Shown piece by piece: positions 23,967 through 63,250 of a stretch of 64,000 nt of DNA. Position 1 is the stretch's first letter. Every line of letters starts with the position of its first letter. A program made the translations under genes and the position numbers. Below the pieces are notes generated by a model. That model ran no database searches, was not told the DNA's origin, and worked only from the letters and a program-made list of their open reading frames with translations. The stretch is from a virus (lineage: Duplodnaviria > Caudoviricetes), in IMG/VR virus record IMGVR_UViG_3300037461_001438, positions 1 through 64,000 of that record, one strand, 5' to 3'.

Positions 23967-24434
23967 ATGAGTTTCGGATCCTTCGAAGAAATTTACGCAA
24001 AAGACGAAAGCAAATCGGAAAGCGGAGTACCCATGGACATCGGGTTCAACAAGAAGGGCGAGCCGATCGTCTTCATTGTGGCCGAGATGGGAAACTCTAA
24101 GAACGAGCGCTCGATGCGTCGTTACGAAAAGGCCCTGGAGTCGGCCCGGCGCGACAAGACACGCCGGCGCATGGTGTGGGCGAAGATCCTCTCCGAGTCG
24201 ATCCTGATGGACTGGAGCGGTGTTCTCGACAACGACGGCAATCCGGTGCCGGCCACGCTGCAAAACAAGATCGCGGCCTTCGAGAAGTACGAAAAACTTT
24301 TCACTGATGTCATGGAGTTTTCGCAGAACCCGGAGAACTACCGGCCCGACGACAAGCAGGATGATCCGGCGGAGGAGTCGGAAAAAAACTTAAAGAGTGG
24401 GTCCGGTGGAACACCCGTTACGCCGGTCAGCTGA
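23967..24434 (+). CDS. Tail assembly chaperone (gpG-like)
   Basis: Between tube and TMP genes; ILMDWSGV.D.DG..VP motif. Confidence 0.8.
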   Translation: MSFGSFEEIYAKDESKSESGVPMDIGFNKKGEPIVFIVAEMGNSKNERSMRRYEKALESARRDKTRRRMVWAKILSESILMDWSGVLDNDGNPVPATLQNKIAAFEKYEKLFTDVMEFSQNPENYRPDDKQDDPAEESEKNLKSGSGGTPVTPVS

Positions 24435-24742
24435 CGTTCTTTCTAAACCTCGCCGATGAAGGCCGGCCGGTGCCGGCCTTGGATGAAAAGCCGGAACTCT
24501 TTCCGGAACTCATCTGGCTCTGGAAGGCCTTCATGCGGCTGAACAGATCGCGACGGTTTGGAATAAATGGTCCGGACCCATTGCAGGTTTCAGACATTAC
24601 AGCGCTGGCTGATCTGATGGAACTGACAGACCAGCCGGCGCTGCGTTTTCTTGATCGCATGCAGTTGATGGACGGGGCCTACCTCAACACTTATTACGCC
24701 AACAAGGCTAAAAAAAATGGCCGAACTAAATCTCACAGTTGA
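24383..24742 (+). CDS. -1 frameshift extension (gpGT-like)
   Basis: Slippery A AAA AAC at 24383-24389; the -1 frame is open to 24742 (KLKEWVRW...PELFPELIWLWKAF..L..SR). Confidence 0.8.
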   Translation, partial: KKLKEWVRWNTRYAGQLTFFLNLADEGRPVPALDEKPELFPELIWLWKAFMRLNRSRRFGINGPDPLQVSDITALADLMELTDQPALRFLDRMQLMDGAYLNTYYANKAKKNGRTKSHS

Positions 24743-27700
24743 TTCAACTGCTGCGGTCGGTGGCGTAAACAGGCTTGAAACAGCCCTTGAATCCGCACTC
24801 GTAAAAGCCGAAGCGCTCCAGCGCTCCCTTCACATGCAGTTCAGCATGGGCAAGGGCCATGACGCTACCACGGCCGCCATGACCAAAGCCGAACGCATGA
24901 TGAAGGCGGAAGCGACTGCGTTAAAGCGCGCCATGAAAGGCCTTGAAGTAGACATCAAGGCCACCATCAGCACAAAACACCTTATCAAAGACATGCGGGC
25001 CATTCAGCGGGCGATCACCGCCTACGGGCCGCTTAAAATATACGCCATTGTCGAAACAAAGGGTGTAGCCGGCGCGGCCAGTGCGGCGAAAGCTGCCGGA
25101 GAGGAGATCCGGAAAGAGCGCGCGGCAAAAAAAGAGGCGAAGCCGGCCGCCGCCGCCGTCATGGACACTGTTGCAGCACCGGCCGTTGCGGCCGCCAGCA
25201 AAGGAGTGGGCTCCAATTTCGTCCCCGGCAGAGACGTCGATGAAGTCATCGGCCGCTACAGAAGGGAAGACCAGCTTTGGGTTGATAAAACAGGAAGCCA
25301 CCGGATCAACGATTATAACGACGCGATCAGGATTGCGAAAGAGCGCGGCGGCACCGTGCTGCCGATTTCAGGCGAAAATCGTCAATGGGCGGTCGCCCTC
25401 GAATCGCTTGAAAAAGTCAAATACGAACTTGACGCCATTAGAAGCGAACCGCCGAAGACATCGCCCGGTGTCGTAAGCGCACCCGCAGATGCAAAACACG
25501 GCGTCTATGTCGCACGAAGCCTTGCAACTGGAGAACGTAAAAAAGGCATCACCGACGACATCGACCAGCGCATGGCCGAGCACAACGCCGGCAAAGGCGG
25601 CAAATACACCAAAAGAGACGGCGGCCCTTACGTCCTTGAGCGCTGGAGCGGACTTGTCTACCCGGACGAGGCCTCCGCGAGGGTCATGGAAAAGAAGATC
25701 CAGAAGTCCTCGAGCGCAATGAACAAAATTCCCGAAGTCGTTCGGGAGGACGCCGACCTGCGCATCCTAAAAGCCTACAGGGATCTTGCCAAAGGCCGCG
25801 GCCTTTCAAATGTCGAGATCGCCGACATCCGTGACAAAGCGGGCGTTGGACAAGGGGAGATCGCACGTTTCCTAACAGCCCGCTCCCAGGCCGGCCAGGC
25901 CGTCATGTCCCTCGGCGACGGATCGGTATCGACCAAACGCGTGCGTGGCGGCGCGGTCGAACTCCTCGGCAAGAAGAATCTTCTGGCCAGGATCGACAAC
26001 GTCGAAGACCAGATCATTGAGGCGGAGAAGCGTTTGTCGAAGCCTCGCACGATGCAGCCTCAGCCGGTGCAGCCAAAAGTTGTAGAGCCTCAACCACCAA
26101 AGCTTCCAGTAGAGCCGATTCCGGAATCGACCGCCGAATCAAAAGCAAAAGCCGACGAAAGAATGGCGCGCGCCAAGCTTCGCGATCAGGCTCAGCAAAA
26201 TCTTTATACAAAAAAGAAAAAGGTTGAGCCGGAGCCTACGCCTGCTCCAACGCCAGAGCCCAAAGTTATTCGGCGTCCCTCAAAAAGAACAATCAGCGCG
26301 ACTCCGTTTGCGCCGAGTACGGAGCCTGGGATTGTCTTCGATACGGCTGTAAAAAATCTGAGCAAAAAAGAAACCGTTGCAAGTGGCAGGCTCTTCCCGT
26401 TCATGGGAGAAGCCTGGAACGACCCAAAATATAGATCGGTCACCGCGCCATTAAACCGGCTGTGGGGCGAAATCGTCAACCGCACAAAAGATGTCGAGGG
26501 CGGGAAACATCAACGCATCCCGATGCTTGAAAAGCAGCTTGAGGCGCATTGGGGCAAACAAACCGACGTCGGGAAAGCGCTTGCACTTCTTCAGCGTGCG
26601 GCTACAGAAAAGACAATCGAGATTTCCCGCTACCCGAAAGTGTTCAATCCGGAAAGCAAGCCGCCGGACACAGATGTCCACAAAGTCGATGCCCTTAAAC
26701 GATTTCTTGAATCAAAGGGCGTCAAGGTCGGCGAACGCGAAGCCGGAAGCTACGGTTATCAAAGAGATGGGATCGTCGCATCCCCGACGCGCGAGCAGAG
26801 CCTGAAACAGCTGCAGCGCATGTTCCGTGGCCAGGATATCCAGCAGACCGGCAAAGGCGCCTATGAGATCGTGACGAAAGGCGGCGCGAGGCTCCCCTGG
26901 CAAACCGTCGGGGATCTGCCGCATCAGCGTGTGGGCCAGTACACCGTCGGCGAAGGCGTCAAGGTGCTGCGCGGCAAAGGCACGCAGATGATCACCGGCT
27001 ACCACGAGCAGGCGCACTGGCTCGAGGATACCGGCCTCATGCGGCCACAGCAGGCCGAAGCCCTCACAAAGCACCTGCGCCAAATCGGCATGGCATCGGA
27101 CGCAGAGAGCCGCGCACGCTTTTTGGGCGACACGATGTTCCGGCGCGCCTCCGGTGTTCGCCAGGATCTTCCTTCGAAAATCGAGCGGCTCGTCCAGTCG
27201 ATCGAGTCCGGCAAAATCTTCGAGAAGGCCCCGCTCTTTCCGAAAGGCGGCGGCATCGATGCGAACACGCGCTCCTACGGCATGGGACAAGATGAAATCC
27301 CGCCATATCAAAAGCGACTTGGCTCCAAACACGGGTTCTTTGAATCCCAAAAGAACGACCGCCGCATATGGTACGACTCACAGCTTGAACTTGGGCGCTT
27401 GATGCAGCTTGAGCAGGACCAGGCGGTTGCCGCTTACGGACGGGCACAGCGTCAAATCCCTTATGAGTATGGAGGAAAAAGATATTCCTACACGCCTGAT
27501 CTTGAAGTCGTAAGATCCGACGGCAGCCGCATGGTCGAGGAGATAAAGCCGTCTGCGACCAAAGCCGGCATGATGTACGGTTCGATCCCGAAGGAAACCG
27601 CTAAGGTCAATGCGGCCATCGAGTATTTGAAGAAAGCCGGGATCGGATACGACATCATTTCCGAAAAAGAGATCGGCCGCGATTTTATGAAGCAGGCGCG

Positions 27701-30700
27701 CGCGACCACACCATCTTACGGCATGACCGAAGATGAATTTTTGAAGCGATTTGCCGAATCCAAACGCGGATTAAAGCCAGAAGAAAGCGTCGTCAGGAGA
27801 GCCGAACCCGACTATAACGCGCTGGCCGAAAAAACGGCGCAGGGATACGTTGCAGAACAAAAAGCCGCTGAACAAAAAATAAGACAAACTCAAGGCGCCC
27901 AATTTGTTGAAATGGGCGGCAAAGAGAATCTTACAGAAGGCTACAACCTTCTTGGCGAAGACTTTAAAAAATTTCAGGACCAGCGCCGTGAGCTTGCCGA
28001 CATGCTCATGCGTGGTGGGACAGCTCGCGACCTTGATGAAATTGAACGGATCTTCGGGGACGACAAAAAGTTCATCAAGGCATACAAGAAAAATCTTGGC
28101 GAAATCGCCATCATGCAGAAAGGACGAAGCAAGCAGGCGCTCGAAAGCGAAGCCTACTTCGCCTCGAAGGGCAAGCTTGAAGAAAACGAATATTACAAAA
28201 AGCAGGTTCTACGAAAAGGCGGCATCGGGAAAGCGTTTAATCAGCAAGTGGACCTGCTCAAACGTGATGGCAAAACAGGCGAAGAGCTCTTCAGCGGAAT
28301 CAAGACAGCCTACGACGAAGCTATGCGTTGGCGTCTTCTTGAAGACGTCAATGAAAAAGTCAAAAAGCAGATCGAGGCGGGCGCAAAGCAGGGCATTGTC
28401 GATGGTGTCGGTGCGGGCGTTGAGGCGACACAGGAAAAATCAAGAAAAGCAGGACAAGCCGCGACGTTTAAAACAGCGGCAGAAGCAGACGCAGCGCTTG
28501 CTGCCCAAAGAGGCGAACAGGCCAAATCCGTAGTCCCCGATAAATACAAAAAGAAACTCGATCAGTATGCCGAGAGAGTCGCCGATCTTGAAATGATGGC
28601 CCGAACTCCAGGGCAGCGGGATGTTGTGAAGGGCCTACGGACGCAGCTTGGTTCGATGCAGGCAGGAGTAATCGGCACAGGCGGCATCGAAGCCTACGGC
28701 GCCGGCCTCAAGAAACTCGGCGGCGAGATCGACAAGACCCACAAAAAGATCATCGCCCTGAATGGCGGCATGCGTGGCGCAGGGGGAGGGGGCGCAGGTG
28801 CAGGCGGGTGGGGGATCATGCAAAAGTGGTCCCTCTACATGAGCGGCATCGCTGCAACACTCTTCGTCCTGCAGCAGGCCATCTCCTACATGCGTGCTCT
28901 GATCGGCGCCGGCCAGGAGTACGAAAAGATCCTGCGCACGACGGCGGCAGCGGCCGGCATGACAAAGAAGGAAATGCAGGGACTCGACGCTTCCTTCATG
29001 AACATCATGAAGTCCCAGGGCTACTCGCAGAAAGACCTGGCCGAAGCGGCAACCGAGCTCATGCGGCTTGGGTTGAGCTACGAGGACGCCCAAAAGAAAA
29101 TGGGCGATGTCGCCAAGGTCGCCGAGGCGACCGGCATGAAGCCTGCCGAGGCCGCCCGCGCCGTGGCACAGGACGTTCACGGGCTCACCCAGGCGTATCT
29201 CGAGCAGGCCGAGCTTCTCGACGGCACCCTCGCCAAAGCAACAGACAAGGCCGGCAAGTCGATCACGGTCATGCTCACGAAATGGTATCGCAGCAAAGAG
29301 CCCGATCTGATCAAGTTCCTCGAAAAGCTGATGAACTACATCGAGGCGAACCAGCCCAAGATCGAAAAGTTCCTCAATGCATTTATGACCGGGCTTACCA
29401 AGATCGGCGAGTTGCTCGGCATGGTGATCGACAAGGCGATGAGCCTCACCATCGCCCTCGAGAAGGCTTTCAGCAACCCGGCCTTCGGTGCGATCGCGGG
29501 TGGTGTGGGCGCAGGTCTTGTCGGCAAGTGGGCCCTTGGCAAAACTGCGGCAAAGCTGACAGCCTATGGCGCAAGCGAAGCGGTCGCCGGCGGCCTTGGT
29601 GCCACAGCGGCTGGCGCGGCGATGAAGACCGGTGCTGCCGCTGTCGGCGGAGCCGTTGCTGGAGTCGCGCTGCCGGTGACCGTTGCCGCCGGGACAATCT
29701 ACGCCCTTACCAAATATGCCGAAGCACAACGTGAGGAAGAAGTCAGCTCGGCAATCGGAATCAAAGAACCGAATGCACGACTCAATGCGTTGATGGCCAT
29801 TCGCGACGAACGTGTCGGCGAGAAATACGGGATCGATATGGCCGAATGGCCATACCCGGAAGAGCTTGAAAAAATGCGTGAAGAGTCGGCCAACGCGACA
29901 GATGCGTTGAGTCTTCTGACCCAAGCAATCGAGGCGACGAAGACCGAACTTGATGCGTTCAAGGCAAGGGCGAAAACCCTTCATGACATCCGCCGCGAAG
30001 TCGAGCCCGATGGGCGCAGTTACATGCGCTTCGACGACAAAGAACTCGATGCCCTCATAAAGGATATGTTTTCAAAGGGCGGCTTCGGCGAAAACACGTA
30101 TGCCAAAGGCCTTGATGCAGAAATCAAACTTGCAAAACGACAGCTTGATCGACTGAAAGCAACACCTGGAACAGAAGAGCTACAGGCCGACTACGGCAAA
30201 TTTATCGAACAAAAAGAATACGAAAAGTGGTTCACGCTGAGTCAGCGCAGAATGGGCGGCATACGCGAATACTCGCAAGTCTTCGGCGCCCCGGCCGCAA
30301 CGATTCAGGAGCAGCCGCAGTTTGCGGCCCCGGCAAGCCGCTACGACGACATCTTCAAAGAGGCGGCCGACAAATTCAGTATTTCGGTCGACCTGCTCAA
30401 GGCCGTCGCCTGGCAGGAGTCGCGTTACAACCCGGTTGCAGTCTCCAAGGCAGGTGCCGTCGGCGTCATGCAGATCATGCCGGATACGGCCAAGGAACTC
30501 GGCGTCACCGACCGCTACGACCCGCGGGAAAGCATCTTCGGCGGAGCCAAGTACCTTTCGCAGCAGATGAACCGCTTCGGCGGCGACACGGCCCTTGCCC
30601 TTGCAGCCTACAACGCAGGCCCTGGCGCTGTCATCAGAAACGGCGGCATCCCGCCCTACAAGGAAACACAAAACTACGTCCAGAAGATCATGGGCGGTGT

Positions 30701-32507
30701 GGCCACAGCCGGTACGACCGACACCTTCCGGCCGATGATAGAAAAGACGGTCAGGAATGAAGTGGCGCAGCTTGGACTCCCGCCGAAGCGGGCCGAGGAG
30801 CTCGTGCAGTCGAGGATCTTTGCCGAAGAGCAGAAGCTCAAGGCGCCGACGATGAGCTTCTACGAGCAGCTCTTCAACATGACTGGTAAGACCGACGAAA
30901 AATACTGGGACAATGAGCTTGCGAAGATCAAGCAGGAGTCCCAGACGCTCGGCAAACAGGCAACGCCCGAACAGCAGGCTGCGTTCGAGTACCAGGCGGA
31001 ATGGTTACAGAAAGAGCGACGGCGCGCGCCGCAGGTGAGGGCCCTTGAGGGGATCGAGGAGACAACCGGAGTAACACCGAAGGCCCTGATCGACATCCGT
31101 AAAGAACGAGAGACGGAGGCTTATCGCACCAAAATCAATCAAGAATGGGTCAAAGGCAACCAGGAAACCATTGCCAAACTGGAAAAAGCCCATGCTATCG
31201 AGATGCTAAAACTCGACATGCAAGGATACGCCGGCCGCCTCAAGGCAAACGAGGACTTCTTCAGCGAGACAGGCCTCATGACAAAGGACTTCCAGTCGCT
31301 CGAGGTCAAGTCACTCGAAGACCACATCGAGATCTTAAGAAAGTCCGGCAAGTACAACGAGGACGAGCTCGCAAAACTTTACGAATACCGCATGGAAAAC
31401 CTGCGGCGGAAATTCATCGAGCCGGCCAAGCAGGAGCTTGAAAAGCTCTTCGGCGCGACCGGCCGCATGGCGCCCGAGCTCAAAAAGATGGAAGCCCTCG
31501 AAATCGAAGACGACGTCAAGAAAATGCAGGACAAGAACCTGCCGGAAGACCAGATCGAAGAGTACCGATGGCGCCGCTACCTCGATCTGAACGCGAAGGT
31601 GCTGGAGAGCACCGATGACGTCGCAAGCGGCATGCAGGCGGCCTGGCTGCGCTACCAGGCGACGGTCGAGCCGCTTGCGAAGTCGGTGTCCGACACATGG
31701 GTCAACGCGGCCCACAGCATGGAGTCGGCCTTCAAAGAAGGCTTCTTCGACATGATGGAGGCGAACTTCGACAACCTCCAGGAGACGGCCACGAACGCCC
31801 TCAAGATCATCCAGCGAGCCATGGCGGCAACCCTCTTTGATATGGTCAAAATGCCGATCATGGGTGCCGCCAAGACTGGCATGGACAGTCTTTTCAAAAA
31901 CATTTTTGGGCCATCAGGAGCCACTAAGACAACGCCAACCACCGGCGACCGTCTGATTCCAGATTTTGGAGTTGCAAAAGGTGGAGCCTTCACTCCAGGC
32001 GGCCATTACGCCTTCGAAAAGGGTGGGGTGGTCGACCGGCCGACCTACTTCCGCTTCGCCAAAGGCAAAGGCCTGATGGGCGAGGCCGGCCCCGAGGCGG
32101 TGATGCCGCTCGAGAAGACGGCCGGCGGCGGCCTGGGCGTCAAGGCCTTAAGCGAAAAGCACGGCCCGATGATCATGCCGCTGAAGCGCATGCCAGACGG
32201 CGACCTGGGAGTCCAGGCGCAATTTGCCGCCGGAGGCGTGTTCGGTGCCAACGAAACGTTACAACCGAATCCGCAGATGGAAGCCGCCCAACAGGCCGCC
32301 CAGCCAGCAGCAGGAAGCGGTGGTGATGTGAAGGTCATCATCAACAACCATACCGGAGAGAAAGTCGAAGCCAAAGAGAGCCGTGGCCCCAGTGGCAACC
32401 GTGAGCTTGAAGTGATGATTGGTAATGCCTTGATGAAAGACGGGCCAGCCTCAAGGGCCCTGCAGCAGACTTACGGGTTGTCCCGGCGCGGCGTCATGAG
32501 AGGTTAA
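24717..32507 (+). CDS. Tape measure protein with accessory domains (GIY-YIG, wHTH-like, HExxH, TnsA-like nuclease, SLT)
   Basis: Position; Ala/Gly-rich core; C-terminal GEAGPEAVMPL; SLT motifs QESRYNP, GVMQIMP, AAYNAG; other motifs are given in findings. Confidence 0.9.
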   Translation: MAELNLTVDSTAAVGGVNRLETALESALVKAEALQRSLHMQFSMGKGHDATTAAMTKAERMMKAEATALKRAMKGLEVDIKATISTKHLIKDMRAIQRAITAYGPLKIYAIVETKGVAGAASAAKAAGEEIRKERAAKKEAKPAAAAVMDTVAAPAVAAASKGVGSNFVPGRDVDEVIGRYRREDQLWVDKTGSHRINDYNDAIRIAKERGGTVLPISGENRQWAVALESLEKVKYELDAIRSEPPKTSPGVVSAPADAKHGVYVARSLATGERKKGITDDIDQRMAEHNAGKGGKYTKRDGGPYVLERWSGLVYPDEASARVMEKKIQKSSSAMNKIPEVVREDADLRILKAYRDLAKGRGLSNVEIADIRDKAGVGQGEIARFLTARSQAGQAVMSLGDGSVSTKRVRGGAVELLGKKNLLARIDNVEDQIIEAEKRLSKPRTMQPQPVQPKVVEPQPPKLPVEPIPESTAESKAKADERMARAKLRDQAQQNLYTKKKKVEPEPTPAPTPEPKVIRRPSKRTISATPFAPSTEPGIVFDTAVKNLSKKETVASGRLFPFMGEAWNDPKYRSVTAPLNRLWGEIVNRTKDVEGGKHQRIPMLEKQLEAHWGKQTDVGKALALLQRAATEKTIEISRYPKVFNPESKPPDTDVHKVDALKRFLESKGVKVGEREAGSYGYQRDGIVASPTREQSLKQLQRMFRGQDIQQTGKGAYEIVTKGGARLPWQTVGDLPHQRVGQYTVGEGVKVLRGKGTQMITGYHEQAHWLEDTGLMRPQQAEALTKHLRQIGMASDAESRARFLGDTMFRRASGVRQDLPSKIERLVQSIESGKIFEKAPLFPKGGGIDANTRSYGMGQDEIPPYQKRLGSKHGFFESQKNDRRIWYDSQLELGRLMQLEQDQAVAAYGRAQRQIPYEYGGKRYSYTPDLEVVRSDGSRMVEEIKPSATKAGMMYGSIPKETAKVNAAIEYLKKAGIGYDIISEKEIGRDFMKQARATTPSYGMTEDEFLKRFAESKRGLKPEESVVRRAEPDYNALAEKTAQGYVAEQKAAEQKIRQTQGAQFVEMGGKENLTEGYNLLGEDFKKFQDQRRELADMLMRGGTARDLDEIERIFGDDKKFIKAYKKNLGEIAIMQKGRSKQALESEAYFASKGKLEENEYYKKQVLRKGGIGKAFNQQVDLLKRDGKTGEELFSGIKTAYDEAMRWRLLEDVNEKVKKQIEAGAKQGIVDGVGAGVEATQEKSRKAGQAATFKTAAEADAALAAQRGEQAKSVVPDKYKKKLDQYAERVADLEMMARTPGQRDVVKGLRTQLGSMQAGVIGTGGIEAYGAGLKKLGGEIDKTHKKIIALNGGMRGAGGGGAGAGGWGIMQKWSLYMSGIAATLFVLQQAISYMRALIGAGQEYEKILRTTAAAAGMTKKEMQGLDASFMNIMKSQGYSQKDLAEAATELMRLGLSYEDAQKKMGDVAKVAEATGMKPAEAARAVAQDVHGLTQAYLEQAELLDGTLAKATDKAGKSITVMLTKWYRSKEPDLIKFLEKLMNYIEANQPKIEKFLNAFMTGLTKIGELLGMVIDKAMSLTIALEKAFSNPAFGAIAGGVGAGLVGKWALGKTAAKLTAYGASEAVAGGLGATAAGAAMKTGAAAVGGAVAGVALPVTVAAGTIYALTKYAEAQREEEVSSAIGIKEPNARLNALMAIRDERVGEKYGIDMAEWPYPEELEKMREESANATDALSLLTQAIEATKTELDAFKARAKTLHDIRREVEPDGRSYMRFDDKELDALIKDMFSKGGFGENTYAKGLDAEIKLAKRQLDRLKATPGTEELQADYGKFIEQKEYEKWFTLSQRRMGGIREYSQVFGAPAATIQEQPQFAAPASRYDDIFKEAADKFSISVDLLKAVAWQESRYNPVAVSKAGAVGVMQIMPDTAKELGVTDRYDPRESIFGGAKYLSQQMNRFGGDTALALAAYNAGPGAVIRNGGIPPYKETQNYVQKIMGGVATAGTTDTFRPMIEKTVRNEVAQLGLPPKRAEELVQSRIFAEEQKLKAPTMSFYEQLFNMTGKTDEKYWDNELAKIKQESQTLGKQATPEQQAAFEYQAEWLQKERRRAPQVRALEGIEETTGVTPKALIDIRKERETEAYRTKINQEWVKGNQETIAKLEKAHAIEMLKLDMQGYAGRLKANEDFFSETGLMTKDFQSLEVKSLEDHIEILRKSGKYNEDELAKLYEYRMENLRRKFIEPAKQELEKLFGATGRMAPELKKMEALEIEDDVKKMQDKNLPEDQIEEYRWRRYLDLNAKVLESTDDVASGMQAAWLRYQATVEPLAKSVSDTWVNAAHSMESAFKEGFFDMMEANFDNLQETATNALKIIQRAMAATLFDMVKMPIMGAAKTGMDSLFKNIFGPSGATKTTPTTGDRLIPDFGVAKGGAFTPGGHYAFEKGGVVDRPTYFRFAKGKGLMGEAGPEAVMPLEKTAGGGLGVKALSEKHGPMIMPLKRMPDGDLGVQAQFAAGGVFGANETLQPNPQMEAAQQAAQPAAGSGGDVKVIINNHTGEKVEAKESRGPSGNRELEVMIGNALMKDGPASRALQQTYGLSRRGVMRG

Positions 32508-32510
32508 AAG

Positions 32511-32867
32511 ATGGCAACAGCGTGGCCAACACAGAATTTGCCAAACTATCTGACGGATGAAGACGCGGTTGAAATAATGCCAGACAATACGATCCGCGGC
32601 AAAATGGATGTCGGCCCGCCGAAACTTAGGCAACGCTCAACGTCGGCACCGACGATATTCCGAGGGTCGTTGCTTCTCAATAGTACGCAGGCGGGTTACT
32701 TCGAAACATTCTACAGATCGACCCTAAAGCACGGGAGCCTCCCGTTCACATGGGTCCACCCACGCACCCGGAATTCTGCCGATATGAACTTCGTCGGCCA
32801 ACCTGAAATGATCTACGTCGGCGGCGGCTGGTGGAAGGTTAACCTTGTTCTGGAGATCCTTGTATGA
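32511..32867 (+). CDS. Distal tail protein (lambda gpM-like)
   Basis: MDVGPPKLRQR, FETFY...G.LPFTW.HP. Confidence 0.7.
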   Translation: MATAWPTQNLPNYLTDEDAVEIMPDNTIRGKMDVGPPKLRQRSTSAPTIFRGSLLLNSTQAGYFETFYRSTLKHGSLPFTWVHPRTRNSADMNFVGQPEMIYVGGGWWKVNLVLEILV

Positions 32868-33337
32868 GCCGGAACGTCTCTTCGGTATTCAGGCAGGCTG
32901 CATATGCGCAGCAGACCGACCAGATCTATCTTGTCTGCCTTGAAATCAACCACGCAAGCCTCGCCCAGCCGATCCGCGTTGTGAACAACTATTCAAACAT
33001 CACTTCGGGCGGCAACGAATACATCGGGTTCCCGTTCGATATCGAGCTGCCACAGGACTTCGAGGACGCACTGCCAAATGTCAACATTGCCATCTGCAAT
33101 GTCGACCGGCAGATCGTCTACGCGATCCGAAGCCTCACCGGGCCACCGACGATCACGATGTTTGTCGTGCTCGCGTCAAGCCCCAACACGATTGAAGCCG
33201 GCCCCTACACCATGACATTGAGATCGGCCAATTATGATGCCATGGCCGTCTCTGGGACAATCGTACCAGAAATTGTGGCGGATGAAGCATTTCCCGGCGA
33301 TTACTTCACGCCGGGAAACTTCCCGGGCCTCTTTTGA
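32864..33337 (+). CDS. Tail tip protein (DUF1833/gpL-like)
   Basis: LEINH..L..PIRVV, YIGFPFDIELP, I.NVD. Confidence 0.75.
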   Translation: MSRNVSSVFRQAAYAQQTDQIYLVCLEINHASLAQPIRVVNNYSNITSGGNEYIGFPFDIELPQDFEDALPNVNIAICNVDRQIVYAIRSLTGPPTITMFVVLASSPNTIEAGPYTMTLRSANYDAMAVSGTIVPEIVADEAFPGDYFTPGNFPGLF

Positions 33338-33735
33338 TGCAGCCTGACCTGTCAAAATATGTCGGCATCCCTTTTGTAGACCACGGCCGCAACCTGGCCG
33401 GCTGTGACTGTTGGGGCCTTATCCGGCTTATTTATAAAAATGAGTTCGGTATCGACCTGCCGGACATGGGGCCGCTCTATAATCATGTTTCAGACATGAG
33501 CGGCATGGCGAATATTTATGTAGACCAGCTTCCGAAGTGGGAGAAAACGCAAGCTCCGAAAACGGGAGATGTCGTTTTACTGAGAATTCAATCTGTCCCG
33601 ATCCATGTAGGGATCGTTCTTGATGGCAGCACAATGCTTCACGTCATGCAGGGCTGCGATGCGGTTGTTGAAAACTTTAATACGCCATTGTGGAAGAACC
33701 GTGTGGAAGGATTTTATCGATGGAAAAAGTCTTAG
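33337..33735 (+). CDS. NlpC/P60 tail assembly protein (gpK-like)
   Basis: YVGIPF...GR...GCDCWGL, HVGI, MLH. Confidence 0.85.
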   Translation: MQPDLSKYVGIPFVDHGRNLAGCDCWGLIRLIYKNEFGIDLPDMGPLYNHVSDMSGMANIYVDQLPKWEKTQAPKTGDVVLLRIQSVPIHVGIVLDGSTMLHVMQGCDAVVENFNTPLWKNRVEGFYRWKKS

Positions 33736-36700
33736 TCGCCTGCCGAAAAAATCCGTTCATTCCAGGCCATGCTGACGTTGAACTGGCCGAAGGCGGCACC
33801 ATCGCCGAAATCCTCGACCAGGTAGGCTTGATGAAAACGGCCGAAATCCACAGCGGGATTTTCGTTTTCATCGATGACCGTCTGATAGAACGAGATGCGT
33901 GGCAAACCACAAAACCGACAAACGGCTCAACTGTTTCAATCGGTATTGCCCCAGGAGGGGGAGGCGGCGGTGGCGGCGGCAAGAATGCAATGCGCACGGT
34001 CGCAATGATCGCCGTAATGGTCATCGCGATCGCTGCAAGCTATGGCGCAGCGACAGTTTTGGCTCCAGGGATGGGTTTTGCCGCTGGCGGGCTTGGGGCA
34101 AGCATAATTGGAGGGATCGCCGGAGCAGCTGTCGGCATTGCCGGAGCCATGCTCGTCAACGCCCTTATCCCGCCGCCAACGCCCAAGAACAGCTCGGATA
34201 GTGGTCCCAACTATCTCTCCCGTATGGGGAACCGCATGGACCCTTACGGGCCTGTCCCGAAGATTTATGGAAAACACAGAGTCTTCCCACGCTACGCCTC
34301 AATGCCTTACACAGAGCTAGTCGGCTCAAAGGAAAACTATCTCCATTGCCTGTTCTTGATTGGAAAAGGCAAATACGATCTTTCCGATTTTAAAATCGGC
34401 GACACGGCGCTTTCATCGTACCAAGGCGTCGAAATGGCGATTTACAATACCGACTACACTCTCGACTTCCCATTATTTCCAAATGACGTAGGTGAAGAAT
34501 CGCTCTCGATCCTGCTTGAGCAAAATGTCCAGCATGTGAGGACGACCACGACAGATGTCGAGCACATCTCGCTTGAATTCACCTTCCCAGAGGGACTCTA
34601 TCGAATTTCAAGCAGCGGGGGCAGGCGCGCTACAACCGTTGAATTCACCATTGAATATTCACCTAAAAATCAAAATAATTGGAAGGCCATGGGCGGCACA
34701 AGAATAAATGTCGCCAATAATCCCACAACCCTTCTTGCAGTCGGCCAAACCGCAACAAGCGCTACCGGCTCCGGAACGATTGCAAAAATCCATTATTCGG
34801 TAATCCAGCAATTCGTCGAAACAATAGAAATAATCGAATCCTACGGCATCGGATGGTGCCCAGAATCCGGCGGCTGCTATAATGTGATTCGATACGAAGA
34901 CGTCTATCAAGATGTAACCGTGGTGTCCGCGATCGATGTCTCGGTCACAAGCGGATCTTTCTCTGCCAGTCAGACTGTCCAGGTTGAATATTCCCCTGGT
35001 AATTACGTCAATTTGACATCGACAAGCGTCTACTTGAATCCGTCTACCGTTCATGATGAAAACGGCGCCCCTTTCAGATGGGGAACATCGTTCGATGTCC
35101 CCAAAGGCCAATACGATATCAGGGTTACCCGTACAAGCTCGCACTCGGAAAGCAACCATTATTACAGCACCTACTGGACAGTGCTCCGCGGCGTCACCAA
35201 GCAAGTACCCGTCACCCTCACCGGCTGTACTTTAGTTGCACTGCGGATCAAGGCGTCGAACCAGTTGAACGGCGTGCTTGATCAATTTAACTGCATGGCC
35301 GAAGGTTTTGTCGAAGTGTGGGATGGAGCTAATTGGACCCTTGCCAAAAGCAGGAGCCCCGTGTGGGCTTTTGTCGATATTCTATGCGGAACGTCGAACA
35401 AGCGGCCAATCAGCAAATCACGAATCGATCTTGACGCCGCCATAGGATGGCATCACTACTGCGTGGAAGAAGGATTTAATTTTGATGCCATCATCGATTA
35501 CAAGACAACCGTTTGGGAACTTCTGCGGCAAGTCTGTGCGGTTGGCCGTGGCAGCCCAGGCATGACCGACAACAAATTCACTATCATCGGTGACATGCCA
35601 AAGCCGATGCCGGTCCAGCACTTCAGCCCGAGAAACTCGTGGGGCTTTTCCGGAAGCCGTGTCTTCCCCGATATCCCGCATGCGCTTCGCGTTCGCTTTC
35701 CGAACGAAGTAAAACAATACGAAGAAGACGAATGCATCATCTATGATGATGGCTACAATTCCGGCAATGCCACGATCTACGAAACAATCGAATTCTTTGG
35801 CGTGACCAATTACAACCACTGCTGGAAACTTGGCCGCTACCATCTTGCCACACTCAGGCTCAGGCCGGAAACATATCAATTCAATACCGATGTCGAGCAC
35901 ATGGTCTGCACCCGCGGCGACAGGGTGCGCTTGACGCATGACGTCCTGCTTGTTGGCCTTGGACAAGGGCGCATCAAGTCCATCTCGACCACATCGATCT
36001 CAATCGACGATGAAGTTGTAATGGTGACCGGAAAGACATACGGCTTTCAATTCAGGCGCTCGGACGGAACATTCAAGACATGTACTCTTACAACCGTAAA
36101 CGGTACCCATCCGGCCGGGACTGCCTTGACCATCAGCCCAGCAATGAATCCTGCCGATCTGCCTGCCGTCGGGGATCTTGCCTTCTGGGGTGAGTCCGAA
36201 CATGAGGCAATCGAAGTCGTCGTTTCACGCATCGAGCCTGGGCCTGATCTTACCGCAAAGCTAACCTGCATTCCTTACAATGAGGCCATCTACACAGCCG
36301 ACCAAGGGACCATCCCGATATGGGATTCGAACATCACGTTGCCGCCTGTTGTCGACCGCAGGCCGCCAAAGCCCAAGATCGTCTCGTCGATTTATAACTA
36401 CAGGCCAGAACAGCTCAACCCGGACGGCACAGTTGCCCTCATAATGAGCGTTGGCTTCTCGATGAACGCAACCGGATTTCTTATTTCAGGCTATCCAGAA
36501 ACAAGTGCCGGGTTCATTGCCCAATATCGGGAAGACGATGCTCAGTGGACAGAACTGCCGCACCTGTCCCGGGAGCAGCGAAAATTTGAGTTCCCTGTCA
36601 AAAACGGCCTTGTCTACGACATGCGGATCAGAAGCTTCAACTACCCAAACGGGCTGTCCGATTGGGATACGCTCGAAAACGTCACCGTCGACTTCGCGGC

Positions 36701-39700
36701 CCAACCGCCGTCGATGATTGCAAACCTTCGCTGTGTCGGCGGCGGGACAAGCTTCACGACCACAGATCTTGAGGTCACCTGGGACACCGTTATCAACGAG
36801 TATGGCGGCGCATCCATTCTCGACTATAAGGTTGAAGTGCGATCAAGCGATGGGAACACCCTGCGGCGAACCGAATTCGTTACGCAGAATTATTACATGT
36901 ACGACTTCGATAAAAATGTCACCGATGGCGGCCCGACGCCGGCATTGCAGATTCGCGTGTGGGCGCGAAACAAATTCGACGTTCTCTCCGACACCTTTGC
37001 AAGCGCTGTCTTTACGAACCCGGCGCCGCAAAACCCAAGCGGGCTCACTTCATATTCTCCGATGGGCGGAGTTGAATTCGGCTGGAACGCAAACACCGAA
37101 GCCGACTTCAGCCATTTCATCTATCGGTTTAAAATCGGTGACGACCCCGAGGAGCCCTGGAGCGGGTGGAAACTTGCTCCGGCAACGGCTTTCTTTAAAA
37201 TGTTTTCTGAAGACGAAAAAGCGCTTTATGGAGAAACGCCTGAATTTTATTTCGAGATAAAAGCCGTCGATGTCTTTTTCCAGGAATCAGGTGCCACAGC
37301 GTCGAACCAGACTGCAGGTTCGCTCAATATCGACCTTACCGATATCGATGATTTCGCGATCAACGCTTCGAAGATCTTCATGAAAATTCCGGTCATTCAA
37401 AATTTGACCCTAACCGACAACTCGCCTTCAGCTGGACGCATTTCGTGGAGCGACTGCGAAATCTACTACAATGGCAACAAGTATGAAATTAACGCTGGCA
37501 GCACGCCGGAAAACCCGGAGTCTCCAGCGCTTCCATACAGGTATATTTACTGGAAAGACCTTGCCACCGGAACCAGCTTCGCCACCGGCTTTCTCGTCTC
37601 GCAGGAGCACCCGGCTGACATCGAATCCGACTGGAAATCCGGTGAAGACTTCATCATCGCCGTCAACGTCAACGGGGTGGCCCAGGAGGCCTGGAACGCA
37701 ATCGCAAACCAAGTGATCGGGTCAGCCTATATCATGAATGCCGCAATCGAAGATGCCCACATCAAAGAGCTGAACGGCTCAAAGATCATCGCCTCAAGCT
37801 CAATTGCGATCGGCAGCCGCACCTTTGGTGCAGGCGGCATGCAAATCGAATACGATGGCGACCACGGCGCACAATTTCATATCGGGAACGGATTGACCGG
37901 CGATGATGCTCGCTACATGAAATATATCGGAGGTGATGTTCTTCTCAAAGGAACCTTTATCCTCGAAGAAGGATCGATGGGATTTGTGCATCTTTCGGAT
38001 GCGCCAAAATTCTTCAACCAAGGCATAATGCCCACATCGACCCCCGGCGACCAAACAATAAACTTTGCCCTTCTTGGCCCAACACATGATGGTTATGGCT
38101 ACGATCCGCAAGGCGGCCCCATATTCGAGCATCCGACATCGGGAACCTTTTCTACTTATTTCACAAAAAACGGATCAGCGGATTTTAGGACATATACCTA
38201 TTTTACTTCCGGATCAAATTATTTAGTTTGGAACAATGAACCATCTTTCAACTGTGGGATGGATTCATCTAGTGATTATGGAGCAGCTACTTGCGTGCCG
38301 GTAATCACAAGAAGCGGACCCGTAAATATCGACTTTACTTATCCATATAACAATTATGCCGATGAAGATGCGATAACAAATCCACTTGATAGTTCATATG
38401 GGAAAACATGCGTTGCATTAACAAAAAGCTCTCCTTCATATAACGGAACCAACCCACCAGAATACGGGGTCGGATCGAATAGTGGCCTTTATTTGGTCCT
38501 CGGACTCAATTCCTCAGACTTGGGCGGCAATGCAAGCGGTAAATTAAGAGTCATCCAAAGGGTGAATGGGACAAACACAACTGTTGCAAGCGTTAACCAT
38601 ACCTATACAAACAGAAGAATCTACACCGGGTCATCAAATCCTTGGAGATATATATGGACAAATTCTGTCGACAATCCAACATACGCGTCATCAACCACTG
38701 AAAATTCAATCATTAGATTCCAAGACGGAGCTAAAAAAATAATAAAGCTAAGAATGTGGCGACAGGGCTCCAATCAAGTACCAAGTGCTGTTGAGATCCA
38801 AGGATCAAACACGGGTTCGTTCACAGGAGAACAAACAACAATTTACACAAACAGTTCACTTGGGACATGGTCTTACCCGGCGTGGAAAGATCTTACTTTT
38901 GAAAATCTAAACAGCTATGAATATTATAAAATAATCCTAACCTTCCCGTCTGTGAACTGGACTAGCATGACTTCCATGCAAATAATGGATGCAAGCAATA
39001 TTAATCTTGGAACCCCAAAATTTTCAAGATTTAGCTGGTCAATTGACTTTGACGATCATACATTTTCAGTATATGAAGATGGGGCCACAGTCATCAGTAA
39101 CCAAAGTTTTTCTTCGTCGATCGATTCTTATTTGACAAGCAATGTCCAATTTAGCTTCTACAATTTTCAAACATACAAAGGCATGAAATGTTTCCAAAAT
39201 GTTAAAATATGGGCAAATGAATTCAACCCTGATCCGAACTCAATAACTATCGGGAAGATCAGCTCTAATGCTGCAAGGGCATGGCTTAGATTTGAAAATG
39301 TAAATATTCCCAAAAATGCGACAATTAACTCTGCAAAATTAGTTTTTAATTCAAAATCGCAACTTTCAGGAACTGTTAATGTAAGAATCCAAATTGAGAA
39401 TGCTGAAAACCCATTGGTGCCAGTGTATTATTCCGATCTTGTCGGAAGATCACTTGGAACTGCAAGTGACAAATCAATCACTTCACAATGGAACGCTGAA
39501 CAATCTTACGAGATAACAGGTCTTGAAGCCATTTTTGAAGAGCACTTTGGAAGATCATATTGGCAGGAAGGGAATACAATCCAAATTCATATTCTGGACA
39601 ATGGATCATCTTCCAGCGTCAATAGAATGATTTACTCTTACGAAGCAAACATAAATAAAAAAGCATATCTTGTCATTAACGTCGACACCCAGGAATATAC

Positions 39701-40289
39701 GTTGCGCGCCAAGGATCTGTGGCGAAACACGAACAACGGAACTCTTTATATTTACAGCGGGACTGAATGGCTCCCGGTGACAAACTCGGTTGAACTCGGT
39801 GACATCGCCTTCAATAACATCGTCAAAAAATACCATCTGGAATATGGCAATGTCGGCGGCCGGGTACTTGAATCGGTCACCGGGACATTCGTCCCCGGCT
39901 TTGTTTACATGGGCAACAAAACCGCCGCAACCGCCGTTACCACCAGCGCAACCGCTGTGGCCACAGCTGATGCGCTTACGGCATCCGGTGCCGATGACGA
40001 ATTCTTCCTTGTCGTTGCCGATGGCGTTGGCACGGCTGGAAGCGACAACTCCGGTACCTTGACCTGGGCCAACACCTCTATCAAGCTTGAAGCGAAAGAA
40101 GGCGCCGGCTCCTGGACCCAGATCGGCGATACCTACACAATAAAAGACTGCGGTTACGGGAAGTCGCTTTCGATTAGCCATCTCTATACACCAACCGCCG
40201 CTGGAGCGACTCAGTTTAGGGCCACAATAGAGGGGGCCTCGGGGCTCTTGCAGACGGTAAATATTCAGGTTGTTCATCATAAAGGTTGA
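33720..40289 (+). CDS. Tail tip/host-specificity protein (gpI+gpJ-like fusion) with Fn3 and receptor-binding modules
   Basis: N-terminal ubiquitin-like segment plus poly-G and TM-like stretch; PYGPVPKIYGKHRVFP; Fn3 repeats; IANQVIGSAYIMNAAIEDAHI. Confidence 0.88.
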   Translation: MEKVLVACRKNPFIPGHADVELAEGGTIAEILDQVGLMKTAEIHSGIFVFIDDRLIERDAWQTTKPTNGSTVSIGIAPGGGGGGGGGKNAMRTVAMIAVMVIAIAASYGAATVLAPGMGFAAGGLGASIIGGIAGAAVGIAGAMLVNALIPPPTPKNSSDSGPNYLSRMGNRMDPYGPVPKIYGKHRVFPRYASMPYTELVGSKENYLHCLFLIGKGKYDLSDFKIGDTALSSYQGVEMAIYNTDYTLDFPLFPNDVGEESLSILLEQNVQHVRTTTTDVEHISLEFTFPEGLYRISSSGGRRATTVEFTIEYSPKNQNNWKAMGGTRINVANNPTTLLAVGQTATSATGSGTIAKIHYSVIQQFVETIEIIESYGIGWCPESGGCYNVIRYEDVYQDVTVVSAIDVSVTSGSFSASQTVQVEYSPGNYVNLTSTSVYLNPSTVHDENGAPFRWGTSFDVPKGQYDIRVTRTSSHSESNHYYSTYWTVLRGVTKQVPVTLTGCTLVALRIKASNQLNGVLDQFNCMAEGFVEVWDGANWTLAKSRSPVWAFVDILCGTSNKRPISKSRIDLDAAIGWHHYCVEEGFNFDAIIDYKTTVWELLRQVCAVGRGSPGMTDNKFTIIGDMPKPMPVQHFSPRNSWGFSGSRVFPDIPHALRVRFPNEVKQYEEDECIIYDDGYNSGNATIYETIEFFGVTNYNHCWKLGRYHLATLRLRPETYQFNTDVEHMVCTRGDRVRLTHDVLLVGLGQGRIKSISTTSISIDDEVVMVTGKTYGFQFRRSDGTFKTCTLTTVNGTHPAGTALTISPAMNPADLPAVGDLAFWGESEHEAIEVVVSRIEPGPDLTAKLTCIPYNEAIYTADQGTIPIWDSNITLPPVVDRRPPKPKIVSSIYNYRPEQLNPDGTVALIMSVGFSMNATGFLISGYPETSAGFIAQYREDDAQWTELPHLSREQRKFEFPVKNGLVYDMRIRSFNYPNGLSDWDTLENVTVDFAAQPPSMIANLRCVGGGTSFTTTDLEVTWDTVINEYGGASILDYKVEVRSSDGNTLRRTEFVTQNYYMYDFDKNVTDGGPTPALQIRVWARNKFDVLSDTFASAVFTNPAPQNPSGLTSYSPMGGVEFGWNANTEADFSHFIYRFKIGDDPEEPWSGWKLAPATAFFKMFSEDEKALYGETPEFYFEIKAVDVFFQESGATASNQTAGSLNIDLTDIDDFAINASKIFMKIPVIQNLTLTDNSPSAGRISWSDCEIYYNGNKYEINAGSTPENPESPALPYRYIYWKDLATGTSFATGFLVSQEHPADIESDWKSGEDFIIAVNVNGVAQEAWNAIANQVIGSAYIMNAAIEDAHIKELNGSKIIASSSIAIGSRTFGAGGMQIEYDGDHGAQFHIGNGLTGDDARYMKYIGGDVLLKGTFILEEGSMGFVHLSDAPKFFNQGIMPTSTPGDQTINFALLGPTHDGYGYDPQGGPIFEHPTSGTFSTYFTKNGSADFRTYTYFTSGSNYLVWNNEPSFNCGMDSSSDYGAATCVPVITRSGPVNIDFTYPYNNYADEDAITNPLDSSYGKTCVALTKSSPSYNGTNPPEYGVGSNSGLYLVLGLNSSDLGGNASGKLRVIQRVNGTNTTVASVNHTYTNRRIYTGSSNPWRYIWTNSVDNPTYASSTTENSIIRFQDGAKKIIKLRMWRQGSNQVPSAVEIQGSNTGSFTGEQTTIYTNSSLGTWSYPAWKDLTFENLNSYEYYKIILTFPSVNWTSMTSMQIMDASNINLGTPKFSRFSWSIDFDDHTFSVYEDGATVISNQSFSSSIDSYLTSNVQFSFYNFQTYKGMKCFQNVKIWANEFNPDPNSITIGKISSNAARAWLRFENVNIPKNATINSAKLVFNSKSQLSGTVNVRIQIENAENPLVPVYYSDLVGRSLGTASDKSITSQWNAEQSYEITGLEAIFEEHFGRSYWQEGNTIQIHILDNGSSSSVNRMIYSYEANINKKAYLVINVDTQEYTLRAKDLWRNTNNGTLYIYSGTEWLPVTNSVELGDIAFNNIVKKYHLEYGNVGGRVLESVTGTFVPGFVYMGNKTAATAVTTSATAVATADALTASGADDEFFLVVADGVGTAGSDNSGTLTWANTSIKLEAKEGAGSWTQIGDTYTIKDCGYGKSLSISHLYTPTAAGATQFRATIEGASGLLQTVNIQVVHHKG

Positions 40290-62947: not shown

Positions 62948-63250
62948 ATGCCATCCGGAAAAAACTACAAACGCGACTACAAGCAGGAGCGCAAGACCGC
63001 GAAGAAGCGCGGCGAAACAGGCGTCGGCTCGAAATCGGGAGACGCCAAGCGGCACCGGGCCCGCCGCAAGGTGGCCAAAACCAAAAGTGTTGCCGGCAAG
63101 GACGTTCATCATAAGAAGAGCATCAAATCGGGCGGATCGAACAAGGCCTCAAACCTTGCCGTCGTCTCAAAAAGAAAGAACCGCTCCGCCGGCGGCAAAT
63201 CCGGCAACCGCCGCGGCAAAGCTGCCGGCGGCAGAAAAGGCAAACGATGA
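62948..63250 (+). CDS. Basic HNH-like protein
   Basis: KDVHHKK.IKSGGSN..SNL.VVS..KNRS. Confidence 0.65.
   Translation: MPSGKNYKRDYKQERKTAKKRGETGVGSKSGDAKRHRARRKVAKTKSVAGKDVHHKKSIKSGGSNKASNLAVVSKRKNRSAGGKSGNRRGKAAGGRKGKR

Follow-up and report, generated by a model that had tools for sequence, protein, structure and literature searches.

A TnsA/gp4-type nuclease domain forms an in-frame cassette in the tape measure protein of an uncultured lambda-like siphovirus

We found that the tape measure protein (TMP) encoded in a 64,000-nucleotide (nt) stretch of viral DNA (positions 1 to 64,000 of the IMG/VR record IMGVR_UViG_3300037461_001438; hereafter the window) contains a TnsA/T4-gp4-type PD-(D/E)xK nuclease domain with a full catalytic set, and the identity of this domain is firm. 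The source record is a virus genome of 90,476 bases, uncultured, from a wetland and rated complete by CheckV. The domain covers amino acids (aa) 871-986 of the protein, which corresponds to positions 27327-27675, and it is translated in the frame of the open reading frame (ORF) at 24717-32507 on the plus strand. It constitutes a discrete in-frame cassette of 147 codons, and the protein whose N-terminal arm holds it is a true TMP.

Several profile collections agree on the family. The isolated domain matched PF08722 (Tn7_TnsA-like_N) with an E-value of 2.8e-7 and 31.4 bits, above the cut-off of 26.5, and the same match was obtained in a six-frame search of the genome. A preliminary description of this DNA, made from the letters alone, had placed the domain in the TnsA N-terminal PD-(D/E)xK family and proposed a Pfam check; that check was run and yielded the TnsA-type match just given, and TnsA was also the best match in the PDB. 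With the whole 2,596-aa protein as query, the score against PF08722 was 23.7 bits (E = 7.4e-5), under the cut-off, a drop that is an effect of search size and not a contrary result. The top PHROG match of the isolated domain was phrog_218 ('head closure'; E = 1.6e-10), accompanied by phrog_15427 (endonuclease; E = 1.4e-7), by PF19778 (RE_endonuc; E = 6e-4) and by the NCBIfam entry TnsA_like_Actin (E = 1.4e-7), where the score of 31 fell far short of the cut-off of 110.

Homologues and a structural model lead to the same assignment. A phmmer search, exhaustive over 1.84 billion representatives, returned 696 matches at E <= 1e-3, the best of them just 40% identical to the domain, and 61 of the 696 were aligned for the analysis of conserved columns and for an AlphaFold2 model of aa 850-1010. 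Among these 61 homologues, E891, D928 and E942 fall on invariant columns and K944 is kept in at least 90% (plus-strand codons at 27387-27389, 27498-27500, 27540-27542 and 27546-27548, respectively). These residues occupy the TnsA positions S-x-x-E (E891), P-D (D928) and E-x-K (E942-x-K944). The catalytic aspartate and E-x-K had been described as intact, which they are, as is the glutamate of S-x-x-E, and the motifs quoted at the time are present in the translation of 27327-27675. The model is confident (predicted local distance difference test score, pLDDT, 88.6; predicted template modeling score, pTM, 0.80) and shows a folded core at aa 872-997 (27330-27707, plus strand). When this model was compared with the PDB by Foldseek, Tn7 TnsA came out on top (1f1z, 1t0f, and 9bw1; E = 2e-5 to 9e-5, probability 1.00), and a profile of the homologue family matched solved TnsA chains with E-values of 5e-17 to 1e-9.

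Most homologues are proteins of 200-400 aa in which helix-turn-helix (HTH) arrays are followed by this domain, with a median of 120 aa ahead of it, and the best relatives, at 35-45% identity, are HTH-fused, free-standing endonucleases. A cultured relative is gp26 of Bacillus phage Moonbeam, annotated as 'endonuclease, contains NUMOD3' and encoded among nucleotide-metabolism genes, which is also the best structural match in BFVD (E = 8e-11, root-mean-square deviation 2.3 Å). Minimal homologues of 124-150 aa exist as well and include the T4-type gp4 head completion nuclease: RB49-type gp4 was matched by tblastn (E = 2e-4, 29% identity), such gp4 genes are annotated 'head closure' or 'head completion', and BFVD entries named 'head completion nuclease' matched the model at E = 1e-9 to 1e-8 (one at 3.5e-9). 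In a tree of the family, the query has a long branch (0.94) and joins no supported clade.

Homologues also occur inside much larger polypeptides. An in-frame unit of HTH repeats plus the TnsA-like domain was seen in six giant proteins (P0024, P0028, P0050, P0078, P0127, and P0151). Five of them count as polyvalent proteins, since the whole HTH-nuclease unit stands beside ART-PolyVal, LPD1/5/37/38 or InPase domains, and in the sixth, P0151, it stands beside a Strawberry-notch-type helicase; the tree demands at least two independent embeddings of this unit in giant proteins. In a further homologue, P0086 (1,556 aa), the domain lies between the Hint halves of an intein in DnaE (Pol III alpha). 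The endonuclease part of that intein (aa ~405-680) is TnsA-like (aa 567-632) and not of the LAGLIDADG or HNH type, and a literature search on TnsA, inteins and homing endonucleases found no paper describing a case of this kind.

The ORF that carries the cassette is the TMP of a lambda-like siphovirus. It is preceded by a major tail gene (phrog_290) and, just upstream, by a pair of tail assembly chaperone genes of the G/T type (23967-24742, plus strand; G-like 23967-24434 with phrog_313/8233, T-like 24470-24742 with phrog_3817/8233), and it is followed on the same strand by tail-tip genes (32511-40289), M/L/K-like and then a 2,199-aa J-like central fibre (phrog_384, 396, 329, and 31). Within the protein, several TMP PHROGs match aa 1324-2479, the Pfam family PhageMin_Tail matches weakly, and tblastn links it to lambda-like TMPs: its last 290 aa align with annotated TMPs of lambda-like phages, those of Stx phages among them (E = 1e-16), and this gpH-like module (aa 2196-2484; 31302-32168, plus strand) is also hit by phrog_1716 and phrog_6747. 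We consider the protein a TMP because its gene follows the G/T chaperones and precedes the tail-tip genes and because its C-terminus is homologous to known TMPs; the gene position, the PHROGs and the C-terminal homology thus bear out the earlier placement of the domain in a tape measure protein.

The borders of the cassette are marked by two copies of a 36-nt direct repeat on the plus strand, one upstream (27261-27296) and one downstream (27702-27737). Each copy encodes 12 residues, in which the core S-Y-G-M precedes D-E. The copies are imperfect, being identical at 27 of 36 positions, but are in frame and spaced by 441 nt, that is, 147 codons, and both fall within the low-confidence linkers that flank the folded core in the AlphaFold2 model. 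None of 20 codon shuffles of the gene contained such a pair, and the real gene contains two. The second pair (25566-25601 versus 26925-26960), likewise in frame and identical at 27 of 36 positions, is a similarity of the GIY-YIG domain to the HExxH region described below and has no evident meaning, so the repeat statistic alone is not strong. An S-Y-G tripeptide also occurs at aa 678, where the DNA agrees with the repeats at 17-18 of 36 positions, which is chance level; as a third copy of the junction it is only a hint. Downstream of the domain, the repeat peptide is followed by a charged stretch (36-38 K/R/D/E per 100 aa, with no proline in aa 1101-1200), which looks coiled-coil-like by eye only.

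Contigs from wetland metagenomes are identical to the window across the cassette and its flanks (24400-29963 in X1, 26999-32800 in X2, and 27122-28466 in X3). Contigs of at least two wetland samples agree and, therefore, the long ORF and its cassette are no assembly artefact. A contig of 716 nt in X4 (record 29; depth 3.75) is identical at 27113-27700 and then differs at 13 positions in 27701-27798, seven of them third codon positions; this divergence, which sets in right at the downstream repeat, reflects either a mosaic boundary between strains or a switch of the assembly from one strain to another. No cassette-less allele, nor a joint across the cassette, was seen in the assembled contigs of four wetland metagenomes. 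Short contigs with about 10% divergence were present in several wetland runs (at 29177-29378, 30020-30119, 31271-31376, and 31817-31874), which shows that the phage is accompanied there by one or more related strains.

Only one related TMP, P0153 (1,911 aa), was found among 5.8 billion proteins, and it surfaced only when aa 1000-1870 served as the query. Nothing was returned for aa 541-1320 against long proteins or for aa 1282-1870 against shorter proteins, a megablast of the TMP gene against cultured phages gave no match, and peptide-pattern scans of IMG/VR and JGI metagenome contigs confirmed no relative of the TMP. P0153 is 37-43% identical to our TMP in the N-terminus, the GIY-YIG domain, the core and the C-terminus, with the GIY-YIG domain itself kept at 35% identity. 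It lacks the TnsA-like cassette, the region around an HExxH motif (aa ~678-852) and the SLT lytic transglycosylase. At the site of the extra blocks, P0153 has one peptide loosely like the junction peptide.

The TnsA-like cassette shares its ORF with unrelated catalytic domains, namely a GIY-YIG domain and an SLT domain. The YhbQ-like GIY-YIG domain (aa 260-336; 25494-25724, plus strand; Pfam E = 1.5e-8) had been noted earlier as a second nuclease fold in the TMP, and so it is. It retains Arg285, His289 and Glu325, and the tyrosine of its second motif is replaced by Lys275 (codon 25539-25541), where P0153 has the canonical Y-I-G; judged from its residues, the domain may be impaired or may act differently. 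At 25365-25556, contigs of X1 and X4 exchange 190 nt for 19 letters, an in-frame net change of 171 nt by which the start of the GIY-YIG domain is lost; the shorter side of this variant is just 24 nt, and so another organism may be its source. The SLT lytic transglycosylase lies at aa 1879-1986 (30351-30674, plus strand; Pfam E = 9.5e-31).

Ahead of the cassette, an HExxH motif was seen in the sequence at aa 774-778 (27036-27050, plus strand). Strand-like segments before it and a glutamate about 33 aa after it give the surrounding region a zincin-like layout, by eye only. The span of aa 560-860 had no match in Pfam, NCBIfam or PDB sequences, a weak LPD23 lead in the Atlas stayed below the recognition threshold, and a single-sequence AlphaFold model was unusable (pLDDT 39). 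No LPD or ART domain was detected by profile in this TMP.

Cysteine is missing altogether from the 2,596 aa of the TMP and from the 1,911 aa of P0153; ten other ORFs of the phage average 1.0% cysteine. Among 139 homologous nuclease domains, the median is two cysteines and 19 domains contain none. The N-terminal 1,320 aa, including the cassette, are basic (isoelectric point, pI, 9-10), in contrast to the tape core and C-terminus (pI 6.0-6.4).

We tentatively favor, with somewhat less than even confidence, the reading that the TnsA-like cassette is virion-carried DNase cargo, for which we infer packaging, ejection, activity and target. The basic, cysteine-free N-terminal arm, with its GIY-YIG domain and cassette, would be built into the virion as part of the TMP and would sit where the tail lumen meets the head, beside the DNA end. 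In lambda and T5 the C-terminus of the TMP lies at the tail tip, which would put the N-terminal arm close to the head and to the end of the DNA. Upon ejection of the TMP at infection, the arm would exit the tail, and the nuclease would then act on DNA at the cell envelope or within it. Its candidate targets are the DNA of the host, a competing element and some structure of the entering phage genome. Because no DNA-binding module comes with the cassette (there was no match to HTH or NUMOD in aa 541-870 or 987-1320), cutting would probably be non-specific or structure-specific, as reported for gp4.

This cargo reading draws support from the precedent of phage P23-45, described below, from the recurrence of the domain in polyvalent proteins, from the lack of a DNA-recognition module, from the avoidance of cysteine and from the GIY-YIG domain present in both TMPs. 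Since that domain is kept in both proteins, nuclease cargo appears to be stable in the lineage. The absence of cysteine from the cassette suggests an adaptation to the constraints of the TMP. We also count for the cargo reading the uniformly basic arm and the description of the homologue T4 gp4 as a non-specific DNase associated with virions (PMC7824862), as well as a genome poor in other TnsA-like, GIY-YIG and homing genes: no other TnsA-like or GIY-YIG gene was found in it, and the sole other nuclease-like signal is a weak HNH/HNH_3 match at 63095-63181 in a frame of 108 aa (E = 0.004 and 0.03, under the cut-offs).

Several points weigh against virion-carried cargo. The cysteine argument is modest, as 14% of homologous domains are cysteine-free too. 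A folded domain of 14 kDa, present in three TMP copies, must fit in or next to the narrow tail lumen, and an unspecific DNase beside the phage's own DNA end needs restraint. The presence of the cassette is lineage-specific and, as P0153 does without it, the cassette is dispensable for TMP function. The closest relatives of the domain look like homing endonucleases, and among the best 150 representatives none is a TMP and none shares more than the domain with this TMP.

A more elaborate form of the cargo reading, which is speculative and on balance unlikely, is that the N-terminal arm serves as a modular delivery rack, in which enzyme cassettes (the HExxH domain and the TnsA/gp4-type DNase) are held between S-Y-G-M junction peptides. 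The peptide would be a recombination point for the gain, loss and swap of cassettes and perhaps a cut site for cargo release, and the DNase would be freed next to the leading DNA end at injection. If this were true, such nucleases would form a class of TMP-delivered first-strike or end-processing enzymes that does not appear in the literature searched.

The main alternative to cargo, doubtful but deserving real weight, is a selfish insert: the catalytic domain of an HTH/NUMOD3 plus TnsA-like homing endonuclease would have landed in frame in an insertion-tolerant gene, where it would persist without benefit to the phage, either still spreading or already decaying. The nearest relatives, with their HTH arrays ahead of this very domain, argue for such an origin, as do Moonbeam gp26 with its NUMOD3, the nuclease within the DnaE intein and the repeated independent embedding of the HTH-nuclease unit in giant ORFs. 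The discrete cassette between direct repeats, its absence from P0153 and the putative strain mosaic boundary at its 3' edge fit as well, although for the presence/absence comparison that homing invites, P0153 is only 37-43% identical. Nevertheless, with no DNA-binding module attached, site-specific homing is hard to see; no Hint or intein halves flank the cassette, and its 147 aa are too few to hold them. The catalytic residues are all intact, the cassette is as free of cysteine as the remainder of the TMP, the genome shows little other sign of homing endonucleases, and the assembled contigs of the four metagenomes yielded no cassette-less allele. The preliminary description had offered two functional readings, domesticated remnants of homing nucleases or polyvalent cargo; the family and the host protein on which both depend have held up, and the evidence does not decide between the two. 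An intein proper was considered and rejected, as the 147 aa hold the nuclease core only, give no Hint signal and have a C-terminal end without the usual His-Asn.

It is improbable that the domain is a built-in head completion nuclease which, like T4 gp4, processes the DNA end during head-tail joining from the head-proximal N-terminal part of the TMP. The strongest PHROG match (phrog_218), the tblastn match to RB49-type gp4 and the head completion nucleases in BFVD point in this direction, gp4 is reported as a DNase needed for morphogenesis (PMC7824862), and no separate gp4 homologue was found in the genome. However, P0153 lacks the domain, assembly of siphoviruses generally proceeds without gp4, the domain is closer in sequence to HTH-fused endonucleases (up to 41-45% identity) than to gp4 (29%), and the orientation of the TMP N-terminus on which this idea leans comes from general knowledge of lambda and T5. 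The chances are slimmer still that the domain is an inert spacer, that is, a folded unit which is no longer a nuclease and which only makes the TMP bulkier or longer, or acts in DNA binding or docking. Loss of the second motif tyrosine in the neighboring GIY-YIG domain indicates that catalytic decay does occur in this protein, and the long branch without supported placement would be consistent with it, but the four catalytic positions are kept and the model is confident and TnsA-like. Finally, capture of a genuine Tn7-type transposase subunit, to which the homology to solved TnsA chains might point, is effectively refuted by the absence of partner genes: no TnsB-type (rve) integrase was found in the full 90,476-base record by a search whose control was positive in seven genomes (TnsC was not searched), the NCBIfam TnsA subfamily score was 31 against a cut-off of 110, and no TnsA C-terminal winged-helix domain (PF08721) follows, as Pfam gave no match in aa 987-1320 (a genome search for PF08721 had no match either, but its control genomes were negative too).

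TMPs are commonly regarded as rulers and channel formers with, at most, cell-wall hydrolases on board. If the cargo reading is true, an intact TnsA/gp4-type DNase beside a GIY-YIG domain widens the range of enzymes that a siphovirus brings in ahead of its genome, and connects transposition, head completion and homing as separate uses of one nuclease family. The locus is also a small example of cassette turnover in a virion protein, with one cassette, two repeats and one relative without it.

Compared with known systems, the cassette shares the fold and the layout of S-x-x-E, P-D and E-x-K with the N-terminal domain of Tn7 TnsA, but it has neither the C-terminal winged helix nor a TnsB partner, and it lies outside a transposon and inside a structural protein of the virion. 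HTH/NUMOD3 endonucleases such as Moonbeam gp26 are its closest relatives in sequence; these are separate genes with N-terminal DNA-binding modules, whereas the TMP cassette is the nuclease core only. T4 gp4 is, like the cassette, a minimal TnsA-like domain without a DNA-binding module, and has been described as a virion-associated, non-specific DNase of the TnsA-like restriction endonuclease fold (Iyer et al., 2021; PMC7824862). However, gp4 is a free-standing myovirus protein of ~150 aa, whereas the cassette is internal to a siphovirus TMP, contains no stop codons and is 29% identical to it. In Thermus phage P23-45, gp96 is a TMP fused to a virion RNA polymerase, present in virions and active (Chaban et al., 2024; PMC10770324). 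The likeness is that an enzyme takes up the N-terminal portion of a giant TMP and precedes the transmembrane and tape regions; the cargo of gp96 is an RNA polymerase, in contrast to two nuclease folds and an HExxH region in our TMP, which has no sequence relation to gp96. Polyvalent proteins of phages and conjugative elements are large polypeptides that combine unrelated enzymatic domains and have been suggested to be brought in together with the DNA (Iyer et al., 2017; PMC5512222). This class (ART-PolyVal, LPD37/38) holds the same nuclease family as the cassette, whereas in our protein no domain of the LPD or ART kind was detected, the carrier is a TMP and a zincin peptidase is only a candidate. 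The text of PMC5512222 makes no mention of TnsA or tape measure proteins and states that ParB-like DNases are not accompanied by other DNases, and our literature searches found no paper on a TnsA-like or GIY-YIG nuclease inside a TMP. The P23-45 fusion and the polyvalent proteins are known precedents, and what is specific to this case is a TnsA/gp4-type nuclease in a TMP, together with its arrangement as one cassette between two repeats.

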